From sequence record LC739536.1: a DNA stretch of 64,000 nucleotides, one strand, 5' to 3'. Below are positions 55,535-58,453 of this stretch, in pieces. Source of the stretch: Escherichia phage phiWec187. Position 1 is the stretch's first letter. Each line of letters begins with the position of its first letter. The notes below the pieces were generated by a model that saw only the letters and a list, made by a program, of their open reading frames with translations, was not told the origin of the DNA and did not search any database. A program made the translations under genes and the position numbers.

Positions 55535-55610
55535 GGTTCCATAGCTCACTGACGAGAGCGCACACCTCATAAGTGTCGAGGGCAGGGATTGTAACCCTGG
55601 GGAACCACCA
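55535..55610 (+). tRNA. tRNA-Met/Ile2 (anticodon CAT)
   Basis: acceptor GGTTCC/GGAACC, anticodon loop CTCATAA, encoded CCA; T-loop ATTGTAA atypical. Confidence 0.65.
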
Positions 55611-55641
55611 TTTAAAAGGAGGTGCTATGCATCTCCTATAT

Positions 55642-55728
55642 GCAAGTGTGGTGGAATTGGTGATACACATTGTGCTTAAAACGCAACGCTTAAATGCTTG
55701 AGGGTTCGAATCCCTCCACTTGCACCAA
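55642..55728 (+). tRNA. tRNA-Leu (anticodon TAA)
   Basis: acceptor GCAAGTG/CACTTGC, loop CTTAAAA, long variable arm, T-loop TTCGAAT, CCA. Confidence 0.8.
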
Positions 55729-55742
55729 AACCTAAAAATATC

Positions 55743-55771
55743 TTGACATTTACTTAGTTTTTTGTTATAGT
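55743..55771 (+). promoter_or_regulatory. sigma70-like promoter inside tRNA array
   Basis: -35 TTGACA 55743-55748, 17 bp spacer, -10 TATAGT 55766-55771. Confidence 0.55.
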
Positions 55772-55782
55772 TACTATGAAAA

Positions 55783-55864
55783 CGGGGTGTATCTCACCTG
55801 ACTTCTAATCAGGCGTTAACCGAGTAATTGGAGTATGCAGGTTCGAATCCTGTCACCCCGGCCA
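55783..55864 (+). tRNA. atypical tRNA-like gene (possible Arg, TCT)
   Basis: perfect acceptor CGGGGTG/CACCCCG, T-arm GCAGG-TTCGAAT-CCTGT, CCA; CCTGA-CTTCTAA-TCAGG arm too close to 5-prime end for a canonical cloverleaf. Confidence 0.4.
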
Positions 55865-55882
55865 AAAAGTTTTAAAAACTAC

Positions 55883-55911
55883 TTGACAAGCAAGATAGTT
55901 TTATGTTAGAT
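55883..55911 (+). promoter_or_regulatory. sigma70-like promoter inside tRNA array
   Basis: -35 TTGACA 55883-55888, 17 bp spacer, -10 TTAGAT. Confidence 0.4.
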
Positions 55912-55927
55912 TTAAAGTATGGTAACA

Positions 55928-56017
55928 GGAAGGTAGGGCGCAGCGGTGCGCAACCAGGTTTGAACCCTGGCCCATTGTAGCGATACGGTGATGGTTCGAC
56001 TCCATTATCTTCCTCCA
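55928..56017 (+). tRNA. tRNA-Ser (anticodon TGA)
   Basis: acceptor GGAAGGT/ATCTTCC, arm CCAGG-TTTGAAC-CCTGG, long variable arm, CCA. Confidence 0.75.
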
Positions 56018-56196
56018 AATTCTCTTAGGAGCTTTATGAATTATAAAACTATTGGACAGGTTGTTACCTGAGTTAAGATTGTAAATAATAAAGTTGTTTA
56101 TGAGTATTCTAATCTTCAACAATCCGAAGATGGTAAGAATATTCGTATGGTAAAAACAGAACAAAAAGATTCCGGTTGTTTTGAATAATTAAAAAC

Positions 56197-56282
56197 GGTA
56201 GATTGGTGAAATGGTAGCCACAACAGTTTGCTAAACTGTCGTCGGAAACGGCGTGTAGGTTCAAGTCCTACATCTACCGCCA
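56197..56282 (+). tRNA. tRNA-Ser (anticodon GCT)
   Basis: acceptor GGTAGAT/ATCTACC, arm ACAGT-TTGCTAA-ACTGT, long variable arm, T-loop TTCAAGT, CCA. Confidence 0.8.
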
Positions 56283-56416
56283 AGTTATCTTTAATGTAGC
56301 TTGTAATCTTACTTTAGCAGAGTAAACTTTCGGCAGATGGTGGCAGCCATTTTACCGATACCCCAATACTTCATAGCTAAGTGCCGCAAACACTGGCTAT
56401 TTTAAAGATAATTTAT

Positions 56417-56492
56417 ACATCGTTAGCTTAGTTGGTAGAGCAAGGTGCTTTTAACTCCAAGGTCGAAGGTTCGAATCCTTCACGATGTACCA
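56417..56492 (+). tRNA. tRNA-Lys (anticodon TTT)
   Basis: acceptor ACATCGT/ACGATGT, D-arm resembles E. coli tRNA-Lys, loop CTTTTAA, T-arm GAAGG-TTCGAAT-CCTTC, CCA; anticodon stem has mismatches. Confidence 0.7.
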
Positions 56493-56497
56493 AACAC

Positions 56498-56584
56498 GTA
56501 GGTATCGCATAGCGGCAATTGCTGGAGACTGTAAATCTCCTGCCCTTCGGGGCTTCGTTGGTTCGAGTCCAACTACCTGCACCA
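56498..56584 (+). tRNA. tRNA-Tyr (anticodon GTA)
   Basis: acceptor GTAGGTA/TACCTGC, arm GGAGA-CTGTAAA-TCTCC, long variable arm, T-loop TTCGAGT, CCA. Confidence 0.8.
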
Positions 56585-56591
56585 AATTAAA

Positions 56592-56676
56592 GATGGATTG
56601 GCCTAGTGGTTGGGCGACGGACTGTTAATCCGTGAACGAAAGTTCTAGCAAGGTTCAAATCCTTGATCCATCGCCA
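56592..56676 (+). tRNA. type-II-like tRNA with anticodon GTT (Asn?)
   Basis: acceptor GATGGAT/ATCCATC, perfect arm ACGGA-CTGTTAA-TCCGT, 15-nt variable arm GAAC-GAAA-GTTC, T-loop TTCAAAT, CCA. Confidence 0.6.
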
Positions 56677-56755
56677 AATAGTGCTTGTAGAGTTAATAGA
56701 AACCTCTAGAATTTTCTAGAATTGTAGGTATCAAATCCTACCAAGCAAATATTTT

Positions 56756-56830
56756 GCTCCTATCGTATAACGGCTATTACGGTTGCCTTGTAAGCAACTT
56801 ATCAGGGTTCGAGTCCTTGTGGGAGCACCA
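56756..56830 (+). tRNA. tRNA-Thr (anticodon TGT)
   Basis: acceptor GCTCCTA/TGGGAGC, arm GTTGC-CTTGTAA-GCAAC, T-loop TTCGAGT, CCA. Confidence 0.8.
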
Positions 56831-56852
56831 ATTTAACTCTAAAGGAGTGTAT

Positions 56853-57176
56853 GTGACAGAAAAAGAGTTAGAGAAATATTTTAATATCAATGTTTTCGAT
56901 GGCTTTGATGATATTGAAGATGTTGAAAGATATTATGAAGTAGAGTTAGATAAGGATAACATTGTAATTCTTTCTGCCACTTACGATTGTGCATATTATG
57001 AAGGCGAATCTCACGTTTATTTCTATGATATGAAAACATCTTTGTTTTATGAAGTACACGCATATCATTGTTCTTGCTATGGCTTAGAAGGTCAGTGGGA
57101 ACCTGAAGAAATAGGTGATTTGGACTTTACTATTGCATATCTAAACAGACGTGGTTCATCTACTATTTTAAAATAA
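56853..57176 (+). CDS. hypothetical protein within tRNA array
   Basis: GTG 56853 five nt after AAGGAG RBS; track ORF 56754-57176 trimmed to exclude tRNA-Thr. Confidence 0.55.
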   Translation: MTEKELEKYFNINVFDGFDDIEDVERYYEVELDKDNIVILSATYDCAYYEGESHVYFYDMKTSLFYEVHAYHCSCYGLEGQWEPEEIGDLDFTIAYLNRRGSSTILK

Positions 57177-57231
57177 ATATCAAAAGCCTCTTGACAAAGG
57201 GGCTAATAATATGTTAGAGTAATATTGTTAA

Positions 57232-57306
57232 GCGGGTATAGTGTTAATGGTAGCATATGAGGTTTCCACCCTCCAGGTGCAGGTTCAAGTCCTGTTACTC
57301 GCTCCA
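57232..57306 (+). tRNA. tRNA-Gly (anticodon TCC)
   Basis: acceptor GCGGGTA/TACTCGC, loop TTTCCAC, T-arm GCAGG-TTCAAGT-CCTGT, CCA. Confidence 0.75.
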
Positions 57307-57737
57307 AGATTATTTAAATGGAATCGCTAGAGAAAATTTCTCTTTTCGCTCATGGTTTTCTCCTTCAAACTCTAGCGGTTCTTTTTAAGTGATTTTTTAG
57401 TTTATTGGAGATTCACTTCCTTAGTGTGAGCTAAAATCGAGGAGCCATCGAACTGTCTGATTAATGATTTGCGAATCATTATAGTTTTAAGACCCCGGTA
57501 GTTTTATGGTGTACCTCTTGAATGTGAATGATGACGGGTTTATGGTTATCCTGGTCGTTAAATATCCAAAAACCTATGTTCCCCTTGAGGGCTTGCGCAG
57601 GTAATGCCAATAAGTCCTGCATTTTCATTTAAAAGAGAATTTATAATGGAAAAAGATGAACTTAAGTATGCTAAGCCTCTGGCTTCTGCTGCACGAAAAG
57701 CAGTTCGTCACTTTGTGGTAACACTGAAGTAATTTAT

Positions 57738-57812
57738 TGGAGATTAGCCTAGTGGGAAGGCAACGGCCTTTGAAGTCGTGATGACTAGGTTCGATTCCTA
57801 GATCTCCAGCCA
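57738..57812 (+). tRNA. tRNA-Gln (anticodon TTG)
   Basis: acceptor TGGAGAT/ATCTCCA (U1-A72 as in bacterial tRNA-Gln), loop CTTTGAA, T-loop TTCGATT, CCA. Confidence 0.8.
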
Positions 57813-57819
57813 AGATTTA

Positions 57820-57895
57820 CAGTGCGTAGCGCAGTTGGTAGCGTGGGAGCCTTGGACGCTTCAGGTCGCAGGTTCGAGTCCTGCCGCACTGACCA
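57820..57895 (+). tRNA. tRNA-Pro (anticodon TGG)
   Basis: acceptor CAGTGCG/CGCACTG, arm GGAGC-CTTGGAC-GCTTC, T-loop TTCGAGT, CCA. Confidence 0.8.
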
Positions 57896-57900
57896 AATTT

Positions 57901-57975
57901 GCAGAGATAGCTGAGACGGATTAGTGCTACCCTGAAAAGGTAGAAAGGATGGATCGTTACCATCTCTCTGCACCA
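57901..57975 (+). tRNA. tRNA-Phe (anticodon GAA)
   Basis: acceptor GCAGAGA/TCTCTGC, arm TACC-CTGAAAA-GGTA, T-arm GATGG-ATCGTTA-CCATC (non-canonical loop), CCA. Confidence 0.7.
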
Positions 57976-58052
57976 AATAACACCATCCAAGGAGTAGACT
58001 TGGTTAACTGTCAATAGCACATTGAGGCTTCTTACAGTGGTGTACTTATTAT

Positions 58053-58137
58053 GGCTAAGTGGTGGAATGGTATACACGATACGCTTAGAACGTATTGCCC
58101 CAAGGGATTGTGAGTTCGAGTCTCACCTTAGCTACCA
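58053..58137 (+). tRNA. tRNA-Leu (anticodon TAG)
   Basis: acceptor GGCTAAG/CTTAGCT, arm ATACG-CTTAGAA-CGTAT, long variable arm, T-loop TTCGAGT, CCA. Confidence 0.8.
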
Positions 58138-58151
58138 AATTATTACAGATT

Positions 58152-58231
58152 GTGCGGGATAGAGGAGTCTGGTCGTCCTCGCCAGTTTCATATGCTGGAG
58201 ATCATCGGTTCGAATCCGATTTCCGCCTCCA
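58152..58231 (+). tRNA. tRNA-Met/Ile (anticodon CAT)
   Basis: arm CCAGT-TTCATAT-GCTGG, T-arm ATCGG-TTCGAAT-CCGAT, CCA; 1:72 pair mismatched (initiator-like), long D-loop. Confidence 0.6.
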
Positions 58232-58289
58232 ATAAATACCTCCCTTCTGGTGTAATGATTAAATTACATTGACACTTCAAGGAACTCAT

Positions 58290-58372
58290 AGCCGGGTAGA
58301 TTTAAAAGAGTATGGTACTCAATATGGCTCCAAACCATAGATCAGGGGGTTCGATTCCTCACCTTGCTGCCA
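58290..58372 (+). tRNA. atypical tRNA (possible Trp, CCA)
   Basis: arm TATGG-CTCCAAA-CCATA, T-loop TTCGATT, 3-prime CCTTGCT-G-CCA; 5-prime acceptor partner uncertain (AGCCGGG at 58290 has one mismatch). Confidence 0.4.
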
Positions 58373-58377
58373 ATTAT

Positions 58378-58453
58378 TGTGGTATCGTACAGATGGTTAG
58401 TACACTCGACCGATAATCGAGAAACAACGGTTCGACTCCGTTTACCACGACCA
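58378..58453 (+). tRNA. tRNA-Ile (anticodon GAT)
   Basis: acceptor TGTGGTA/TACCACG, arm CTCGA-CCGATAA-TCGAG, T-arm AACGG-TTCGACT-CCGTT, CCA. Confidence 0.8.

Follow-up and report, generated by a model that had tools for sequence, protein, structure and literature searches.

To our knowledge, the cloverleaf is regarded as the universal fold of transfer RNA (tRNA) outside animal mitochondria. All known bacterial tRNAs have been stated to adopt it (PMC11551756). In human mitochondrial tRNASer(GCU), cryo-electron microscopy revealed that the core is lost, the T arm remodelled and a D-replacement loop joined to an extended anticodon stem (PMC9427863). The 8/4 tRNAs, which comprise Ser, His, Cys and Sec species together with allo-tRNAs carrying a long variable arm, have been reported from bacteria and from tRNA clusters of phages (Mukai et al. 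2017, PMC5389517). An engineered D-armless tRNA, "mini HisT", was accepted by E. coli HisRS, EF-Tu and the ribosome (Edelmann et al. 2024, PMC11551756), its use in vivo requiring a mutation in PNPase (PMC11551756). Here we analysed a stretch of 64,000 nucleotides (nt) of Escherichia phage phiWec187 (LC739536.1), hereafter the window, which carries an array of 17 tRNA genes, all on the + strand, at 55535-58453 (Table 1). This array of a phi92-like coliphage probably contains two conserved tRNA families, one for Arg and one for Trp, whose core is not that of the cloverleaf and which were found here only in phages and phage-like contigs.

The region 55200-58800 was 98% identical to Escherichia phages phi92 and muut and to many other members of Justusliebigvirus (Stephanstirmvirinae); judged by this identity, the window is that of a phi92-like Justusliebigvirus coliphage. 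With default settings ARAGORN reported 15 tRNA genes in the array, and these matched exactly the anticodons and coordinates given by a first-pass annotation, which had described a phage array of about 17 tRNAs, several of them non-canonical. Rfam, at its gathering threshold, returned 14 tRNAs; it added 55783-55861 and lacked the first CAT tRNA and Ser(TGA). A relaxed ARAGORN run (-ps80, 80% of thresholds), proposed as a check in that annotation, gave an extra call, Trp(cca) at 58295-58372, with a poor acceptor stem. Both odd loci had been flagged beforehand at the right coordinates, and the anticodons TCT and CCA, put forward for them as candidates, proved to belong to real conserved tRNA genes, whose relatives in unrelated phages keep every stem by compensatory changes. 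CCA, thought to be encoded in most genes, is present at the 3' end of all 17. The earlier list of oddities thus held for these two loci, but it lacked the T-loop of the first CAT tRNA, the variable arm of tRNA-Asn and the tRNA-Sec match of Ser(TGA). In the phi92 and muut annotations, which count 15 tRNAs each, the Arg and the Trp locus are both left blank; phi92 moreover marks Ser(TGA) and Phe as pseudogenes and names the first CAT gene a "hypothetical tRNA".

The Arg locus keeps an acceptor stem of 7 base pairs (bp), a 5-bp anticodon stem with a 7-nt loop (U33, purine 37), a 5-bp T stem, a TTCRANY loop and the 3' CCA. It has no D hairpin, the acceptor and anticodon stems being just 7 nt apart, a distance that is the same in all 55 aligned family members. 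Rfam (RF00005) reached its 38.6 bits, against a threshold of 29, only by skipping the D arm in local mode: in the alignment of 55783-55861, 15 D-arm model positions correspond to 4 nt, and a 20-nt insert is placed in the variable region. The first-pass remark that 55783-55864 leaves no room for a normal D arm was borne out. ARAGORN in its metazoan-mitochondrial mode made no call on the locus.

A 96-nt stretch containing this gene, used as blastn query, matched 674 phage records, 233 of which covered at least 80% of the query. Full-length copies of 80-88% identity were found in Felixounavirus, Sugarlandvirus (Demerecviridae), Mydovirus and another member of the Vequintavirinae, and further ones in a Kuravirus, a 368-kb jumbo phage and Streptomyces phage Yaboi. 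They lie within or beside tRNA arrays, on the tRNA strand, and are almost always unannotated; one record has "tRNA-OTHER", and Yaboi has tRNA-Val(aac). A pattern made of the linker, the anticodon loop and the next six bases matched 42 IMG/VR contigs (29 distinct sequences), and a second one, GGAGTATG-N3-GTTCGA, which left linker and anticodon free, retrieved many more divergent members from that database. Sequences were kept if the acceptor, anticodon and T stems paired, with the region of the additional helix described below unconstrained; this yielded 56 distinct sequences, 55 of them aligned (alignment A1). ARAGORN missed the element in 54 of the 56 cases, and CCA is usually encoded. By these matches, the rewired Arg family spans at least seven phage lineages and many IMG/VR contigs.

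Among 185,579 species genomes scanned with one pattern there were six matches, four of them true members, all on contigs of metagenome-assembled genomes (MAGs), and for this pattern no copy was found in these genomes outside MAG contigs; three of the four contigs hold several tRNA genes. Likewise, 5,426 complete E. coli genomes gave no blastn match. The element seems to be phage-restricted. A covariance model (R1) run over 100 unrelated phage loci produced mostly cross-matches to ordinary tRNAs at 20-33 bits and no evidence of the same topology with non-arginine anticodons, and it added one new divergent member, at 308-389 of IMG/VR contig L230. There, the anticodon is ACG, the bulge measures about 4 nt and a 16-nt strand precedes the T arm, which indicates that the topology tolerates changes in length. 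On another IMG/VR contig (L161, 264-354), a cloverleaf tRNA with anticodon UAU and a normal D arm has a 21-nt variable region, AGCAACAGATAATTGGTTAAT, which resembles the D-loop-like strand of the Arg element; it may be a relative or an intermediate form.

Over the 55 aligned sequences the three standard stems of the Arg family are paired at 99% (acceptor), 95% (anticodon) and 99% (T), and compensatory double changes occur in 15 of the 17 pairs of these stems, including all seven acceptor pairs. The same alignment contains one more helix, which we call helix H, formed by columns 11-13 with 40-42. All 165 of its 165 cells are paired, with four pair types. Pair 12:41 is U-A in 35 sequences, G-C in 10, A-U in 8 and C-G in 2; pair 13:40 is C-G in 44, U-A in 6 and G-C in 5; pair 11:42 is C-G in 54 and U-A in 1. 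Together they make 14 strand combinations, for example CUC/GAG, CGU/ACG, CAU/AUG, CAG/CUG, CUU/AAG, CGG/CCG, CCC/GGG and CAC/GUG. None of 500 shuffles reached the observed scores, and sliding the partners by one to three columns lowered the pairing to 33-47%. A mutual-information scan blind to structure ranked 12:41 fifth overall (1.44 bits), and both this pair and 13:40 (0.92 bits) came out among those of the stems. Columns 14:39 were brought up as well; they are A.C in 34 sequences, C.A in 8 and sometimes Watson-Crick or wobble, a composition that would suit a non-Watson-Crick closing pair such as 26:44.

On the 5' strand, helix H runs without a break into the anticodon stem, and it would stack on that stem at the place of the D stem. 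Its 5' strand directly follows the acceptor stem and the UAU linker, and its 3' strand lies beyond a conserved 7-nt bulge, CGUUAAY. Within the strand that leaves the helix, U-AAUUGGA-GUAU, the heptamer AAUUGGA would fit the D-loop consensus A14 R15 Y16 Y17 G18 G19 A20; the D-loop of E. coli argU tRNA, AGUUGGA, is nearly identical. The GG of this strand (UAAUUGGA), taken as G18/G19, would contact the T-loop (55/56). The UAU linker would supply a U at the place of U8 (U8-A14), and the final U of the strand, as the end of the variable loop (U48), could pair with A15 (15:48). The usual core contacts and the L shape would thereby be kept with a changed order of strands, the D-loop-like strand running straight into the T stem. 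Host RNase P, ArgRS (via C35, U36 and the A after the GG), EF-Tu and the ribosome would use this tRNA to read AGA.

The anticodons of the family point in the same direction. UCU was present in 52 of the 56 sequences, UCG in 2, CCU in 1 and ACG in 1, all of the form NCU or NCG; they span both arginine codon boxes and nothing else, and the divergent member on L230 also has ACG. The identity set of E. coli ArgRS consists of C35, U36 or G36, and A20. Arginine-only anticodons are what is expected if charging depends on C35 and U/G36, and are unexpected for a serine-type, anticodon-blind or decoy RNA. An invariant A follows the invariant GG (column 50), here outside a closed D-loop and in columns that the search pattern had fixed in part. 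The anticodon loop reads CUUCUAA and the acceptor/T branch has the standard 12 bp. In each locus with other tRNAs, all of these lie on the strand of the Arg element; where such a locus also has a canonical Arg tRNA, its anticodon is nearly always a different one (ACG, UCG, GCG, CCU). ARAGORN found no canonical tRNA-Arg in the 64-kb window, and there is none among the 15 tRNAs listed for muut. We infer, with good support from these sequence features, that the Arg element is a working arginine decoder.

The second odd locus is that of Trp. No RF00005 match was listed for it, and its best Rfam score was that of tRNA-Sec, 22.4 bits against a threshold of 47. Relatives were found in other Stephanstirmvirinae, in Ounavirinae (Hafnia phages and a phage deposited as a Listeria phage), in Mydo and on IMG/VR contigs, giving an alignment of 15 distinct sequences (A2). 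The ARAGORN fold starting at 58295 has three non-pairs in the acceptor stem and was replaced by a start at 58290, which covariation supports. The first-pass annotation had put the gene at 58290-58372 with an unclear 5' acceptor strand; its start is upheld, and the strand resolves into an 8-bp stem with a conserved 4:69 mismatch, followed by a connector that pairs. The eighth acceptor pair is formed in 15 of 15 sequences (U-A 7, A-U 3, C-G 2, U.G 2, G-C 1). A 7/5 reading of the locus was tried and rejected, its fifth T-stem pair being unpaired in 12 of 15. The 4:69 mismatch occurs in 8 of the 15 sequences and G5.U68 in 13.

The Trp connector has 9-10 nt (A-R-N-UUUWAA-N), and its nucleotides 2-4 pair with nucleotides 2-4 of the 6-nt variable strand. 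In this helix 44 of 45 cells are paired, with 12:55 as G-C in 6 sequences, C-G in 4, A-U in 3 and U-A in 2, and it encloses a short D hairpin (4 bp; in most members a GG-containing loop of 3-5 nt) together with the anticodon arm. The extra helix brings the number to five and splits the four-way junction of the cloverleaf into two three-way junctions. The anticodon loop, CUCCAAA, is invariant in the family, and E. coli tryptophan identity fits the A1-U72, G73 and CCA of the locus. Both odd tRNAs co-occur in the window and in further phages, Mydo (L006), L033 and L049. In either of them, the stretch that comes next to the acceptor stem forms a short new helix with the stretch leading into the T arm. 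At the level of the alignments, covariation demonstrates the helices of both families.

Several points weigh against this picture. By nearest-neighbour energies, helix H is on average at +1.0 kcal/mol relative to the three-stem fold. Neither RNAfold nor RNAalifold predicted it; both gave only the three standard stems or a variable-arm hairpin. Thermodynamic folding is blind to helix H because the bulge makes the helix slightly unfavourable, which leaves covariation among the sequences as the evidence for it. The nucleotides of the proposed tertiary contacts (U8-A14, A15-U48, GG with the T-loop, A20) are invariant and lie beyond the reach of covariation, and the mapping has the standing of a hypothetical model. 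Part of this invariance was imposed by the searches: the regular expression by which the 56 sequences were selected fixed columns 9-10, 43-45 and 48-54, and the scan with GGAGTATG-N3-GTTCGA fixed 48-55 and 59-64. The scan with linker and anticodon loop fixed other columns (8-14, 20-26, 32-37) and still gave the same D-loop-like motif. The A20 that E. coli ArgRS normally recognises lies in a true D-loop. The Trp family, finally, comprises 15 sequences only, with D-hairpin columns that are imperfectly aligned and 85% paired.

The odd loci might instead encode tRNA-like RNAs that do not decode, serving as decoys for tRNA-targeting nucleases or tRNA-binding defence proteins, or as punctuation for processing of a polycistronic transcript by RNase P/Z. 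Defences that target tRNAs and phage tRNA counter-measures are well documented; examples are PARIS/AriB, Septu, which cuts the variable loop of tRNA-Tyr, and Cas13a, together with a hypothesis published in eLife in 2023. The array also holds a tRNA-like three-way junction that lacks an anticodon loop (56677-56755), and an unusual core could impair use by the ribosome. We nevertheless consider such a role unlikely. It is not obvious why a decoy or a signal for processing should require four anticodons, all of them arginine-specific, together with a standard C32-U33-NNN-A37-A38 loop, an acceptor/T branch of 12 bp and a CCA end encoded in the gene; moreover, the element occupies the otherwise empty Arg(UCU) slot of the arrays, in a phage that encodes 27% of its arginines by AGA.

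A different structure has also to be weighed for the Arg locus, namely a D-armless tRNA with an ordinary long variable-arm hairpin, allo-tRNA- or class II-like and perhaps charged with serine. The hairpin in question, CCGA-GUAA-UUGG, appears in the minimum free energy structure of the window copy computed by RNAfold and is likewise suggested by folding by hand; the discriminator is G, and allo-tRNAs with AGA/AGG anticodons exist (PMC5389517). Across the 55 sequences, however, the four pairs of this hairpin have a single cell in which both partners are changed, and each pair has 9-27 unpaired cells, against none in helix H; the hairpin's mean energy gain of +1.4 kcal/mol is unfavourable. The acceptor/T branch is 7/5, not 8/4 or 9/3. 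SerRS does not read the anticodon, whereas the anticodons of the family are arginine-only, as is expected of an identity element. This structure is therefore very improbable. It is hardly credible that the two genes are pseudogenes in decay, or that they resemble tRNAs by chance in a junk-tolerant array. Default ARAGORN misses both, the Trp locus lies under every Rfam threshold and phi92 flags the neighbours Ser(TGA) and Phe as pseudogenes, but the covariation data contradict this reading. Conservation over the full length extends to at least seven phage lineages and to many contigs from the environment, each stem shows compensatory changes, and the T-loop of the "pseudo" Phe is itself conserved from coliphages to a Bacillus phage.

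Table 1. Coordinates of the array in the window, including parts of the two rewired tRNAs, promoter-like sites and the terminator-like hairpin.
Feature	Coordinates	Strand	Remarks
Promoter-like site	55201	+	TTGACA-18-TAnnnT
tRNA(CAU) number 1, annotated Met	55535..55610	+	ARAGORN; below Rfam tRNA threshold; cloverleaf
tRNA-Leu(UAA), class II, canonical	55642..55727	+	ARAGORN; Rfam 56.1 bits
Sigma-70-type promoter-like site	55743..55771	+	TTGACA-17-TATAGT, TG extension; consensus scan 11/12; ends 11 nt before rewired tRNA-Arg
Rewired-core tRNA-Arg(UCU)	55783..55864	+	Rfam 38.6 bits; missed by default ARAGORN; covariation across 55 members
tRNA-Arg acceptor stem	55783-89 with 55854-60	+	Then UAU linker 55790-92
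tRNA-Arg helix H, 5' strand CUC	55793-95	+	Then A55796
tRNA-Arg anticodon arm	55797-55813	+	Anticodon UCU 55804-06
tRNA-Arg bulge CGUUAAC	55814-20	+	Then C55821 and helix H 3' strand GAG 55822-24
tRNA-Arg 12-nt D-loop-like strand UAAUUGGAGUAU	55825-36	+	Directly after helix H
tRNA-Arg T arm	55837-53	+	Discriminator G55861; CCA 55862-64
Promoter-like site	55883..55912	+	TTGACA-18-TAGATT; upstream of tRNA-Ser(UGA)
tRNA-Ser(UGA)	55928..56017	+	ARAGORN; long variable arm, GCGA loop; discriminator U
tRNA-Ser(GCU), canonical class II	56197..56282	+	ARAGORN, Rfam
tRNA-Lys(UUU), canonical	56417..56492	+	ARAGORN; Rfam 66 bits
tRNA-Tyr(GUA), class II	56498..56584	+	ARAGORN, Rfam
tRNA-Asn(GUU)	56592..56676	+	ARAGORN, Rfam; long variable arm GAAC-GAAA-GUUC, unusual for Asn
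tRNA-Thr(UGU), canonical	56756..56830	+	ARAGORN, Rfam
Promoter-like site	57191..57220	+	TTGACA-18-TAGAGT; upstream of tRNA-Gly
tRNA-Gly(UCC), canonical	57232..57306	+	ARAGORN, Rfam
tRNA-Gln(UUG), canonical	57738..57812	+	ARAGORN, Rfam
tRNA-Pro(UGG), canonical	57820..57895	+	ARAGORN, Rfam
tRNA-Phe(GAA)	57901..57975	+	ARAGORN; Rfam 49.2 bits; T-loop AUCGUUA, 3-bp D stem
tRNA-Leu(UAG), class II, canonical	58053..58137	+	ARAGORN, Rfam
tRNA(CAU) number 2	58153..58231	+	ARAGORN; Rfam 45 bits; U1.C72 mismatch, 5-bp D stem
Five-helix tRNA-Trp(CCA)	58290..58372	+	ARAGORN at -ps80 only; covariation in 15 members
tRNA-Trp 8-bp acceptor	58290-97 with 58361-68	+	C4.U69 mismatch
tRNA-Trp connector	58298-58307	+	GAU 58299-301 pairs with AUC 58341-43 of variable strand
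tRNA-Trp D hairpin	58308-20	+	Loop AUGGU
tRNA-Trp anticodon arm	58323-39	+	CCA anticodon 58330-32
tRNA-Trp 4-bp T stem	58346-49 with 58357-60	+	Discriminator G58369; CCA 58370-72
tRNA-Ile(GAU), canonical	58378..58453	+	ARAGORN, Rfam
Intrinsic-terminator-like hairpin and T run	58566..58594	+	Closes array

Apart from the two rewired tRNAs, further members of the array depart from the standard. The T-loop of the first CAU tRNA is AUUGUAA, with A54/U58 in contrast to the universal U54-A58; its homolog in the T4-like Erwinia phage FBB1 has the T-loop AUCGUAA and covarying stems. tRNA-Phe carries the same A54/U58 combination in its AUCGUUA loop, which the first-pass annotation had read correctly from the DNA as a non-TTC T-loop, ATCGTTA. 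This loop and the 3-bp D stem are kept in the T5-like phages SB9 and Ace and in Bacillus phage BM15, and in these relatives the acceptor, anticodon and T stems covary; judged by this conservation, tRNA-Phe is not a pseudogene. The variable arm of tRNA-Asn is class II-like, with a GAAA loop, and its 4-bp stem covaries: GAAC/GUUC in the window, GAGA/UCUC in Klebsiella phage KP2025 and GUUC/GAAC in Phapecoctavirus Schickermooser.

The second CAT tRNA had been likened to an initiator. The 1:72 mismatch on which this likeness was built is real and is kept in relatives with other bases (C.U in phi92, C.C in KP13-26). However, the anticodon stem, CCAGU/GCUGG, has A-U at 29:41 and U.G at 31:39 and thus no three consecutive G-C pairs, the feature that marks bacterial initiators; candidate identities are Met, Ile2-type or initiator-like, and each of them may apply. 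For tRNA-Ser(UGA), Rfam matched tRNA-Sec only, at 35.3 bits and below its threshold of 47. Its acceptor/T branch can be drawn as 7/5 or as 9/3, and the homolog in Mydo (L006, 4583-4671) is equally ambiguous.

It is conceivable, although we regard it as doubtful, that these oddities are not independent, and that core, elbow and variable regions have been remodelled systematically, giving tRNAs which host synthetases, EF-Tu and ribosomes can use but which are not recognised by tRNA nucleases or modifiers that read shape, be these of host immunity or of phage host-shutoff. Several such shape-reading nucleases have become known. The idea would cover the rewired Arg, the five-helix 8/4 Trp, the variable arm of Asn, the A54/U58 T-loops (Phe and one CAU) and the open 1:72 of the other CAU. 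If true, evasion by fold would be another route, next to the mutations of the anticodon loop that have been proposed for phage tRNAs before.

The 17 genes on the same strand would apparently be transcribed from several sigma-70-type promoters and ended by one terminator. Internal promoters of the form TTGACA-17-TATAGT had been noted before. One exact site of this kind stood, at 55743-55771, whereas the three other TTGACA sites have 18-nt spacing and TAnnnT; the excess of promoter-like matches over shuffled sequences was only modest (16 versus 9.6 +/- 3.2). In the long open reading frames (ORFs) of the window, AGA makes up 27% of Arg codons and AUA 17% of Ile codons, and UUA, ACA, CAA, CCA and GGA are heavily used. 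From this heavy use of AGA, AUA and others, the array looks like the usual supplement for codons rare in the host. Most of its genes would be ordinary decoders of codons that are frequent in the AT-rich phage and rare in E. coli.

Other observations concerned the spacers inside the array. In muut (L002, about 2027-2352), the spacer around the rewired tRNA-Arg exceeds that of the window (55728-55927) by about 120 nt. Several relatives (SD2, ALITA, UAB_1) have HNH homing endonuclease genes within the array, which marks it as an insertion hotspot. A non-coding stretch of about 250 nt, 57398-57645, is 95-98% identical to the rIII-30.9 intergenic region of T4-like phages, which belong to a different family; hence the hundreds of Tequatrovirus-type records that match the region. 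It had no Rfam match, and the folding z-score for 57307-57645 was -2.5. This neighbourhood seems to be the source of the label "rIII" that the small ORF 57604-57732 carries in phi92. Between tRNA-Ser(GCU) and tRNA-Lys, a 134-nt spacer (56283-56416) adopts a closed predicted fold with its ends paired over 11 bp (z = -2.95) and may represent a stable RNA that is not a tRNA; its position is comparable to that of the small stable RNAs in the tRNA cluster of T4. The three-way junction between tRNA-Asn and tRNA-Thr (z = -2.7) consists of a 6-bp terminal stem, UGCUUG/CAAGCA, a palindromic hairpin, UCUAGA-AUUU-UCUAGA, and a T-arm-like hairpin, GUAGG-UAUCAAAU-CCUAC.

The best four matches to the array, at 98.6% identity, were the 146-kb genomes MG065639, MG065645, MG065656 and MG065689, deposited as "Campylobacter phage" with Campylobacter jejuni as host. 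The phi92-like E. coli phages match about equally, and for this reason the Campylobacter label of these four records looks doubtful.

Our literature search, which included searches by sequence, returned no description of either the Arg or the Trp structure; it covered few subscription journals, so that an earlier report is possible. From the present evidence, the array belongs to an ordinary type of phage element, but two of its genes represent undescribed structural variants of tRNA, whose role as decoders is well supported though inferred. Two natural tRNA families with another core wiring would thus exist in well-known, cultivable coliphages (phi92-, FelixO1-, Mydo- and Sugarland-like) and would show how far the bacterial translation system may tolerate changes of the core. 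The seeming lack of an AGA-reading tRNA-Arg in many large phages would be explained, since gene finders miss the element and most GenBank records are blank at its place. Rewired tRNAs could also be natural scaffolds for orthogonal tRNA design, and they raise the question whether changes of fold are a counter-measure to tRNA-targeting immunity.

Among known tRNAs, the rewired Arg recalls the metazoan mitochondrial tRNA-Ser(AGY/AGN). Both have no D hairpin, and in both the strand after the acceptor stem, CUCA in either case, pairs 3' of the anticodon arm and stacks, or in the phage would stack, on the anticodon stem; the mitochondrial tRNA reads codons of the AGN box, as the phage tRNA would. 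In the mitochondrial tRNA, however, the tertiary core and the canonical T-loop are lost, the T stem has 6 bp, and mitochondrial SerRS and EF-Tu have co-evolved with it (PMC9427863). The phage tRNA-Arg differs by a canonical 5-bp T arm with a TTCGANY loop, three covarying Watson-Crick pairs, a conserved 7-nt bulge, a 12-nt strand with GG and arginine anticodons, and it would be used by an unadapted bacterial translation apparatus.

The (8/4) and (9/3) tRNAs, with the allo-tRNAs and tRNA-Sec, resemble the Trp gene, which has an 8-bp acceptor and a 4-bp T stem and so keeps the 12-bp branch; tRNA-Ser(UGA) may be of this kind as well. A text search of PMC5389517 found no Trp species and no connector helix that pairs the variable loop. 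Compared with the (8/4) allo-tRNAs, the phage Trp has a 6-nt variable strand, an invariant CCA anticodon and no long variable arm. The Arg gene, with its 7/5 branch, lies outside this class.

With canonical tRNA-Arg(UCU), as in E. coli argU and in T4- and T5-type phages, the Arg element shares the anticodon loop CUUCUAA and the presumed decoding of AGA, a codon rare in the host, for which the tRNA-Arg(UCU) of T4 is known as a supply. Its T arm is 97% identical to that of T5-like tRNA-Arg genes over nt 60-91 (blastn). The canonical species, in contrast, has a normal D arm and a 5-nt variable loop, whereas in the rewired one the D-loop-like sequence lies 3' of the anticodon arm and a D-stem-like helix encloses that arm. 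Since the engineered D-armless mini HisT was accepted, use of a rewired tRNA in E. coli translation is plausible; unlike the artificial mini HisT, the phage tRNAs occur naturally, are conserved and still possess a helix like a D stem and a strand like a D-loop.

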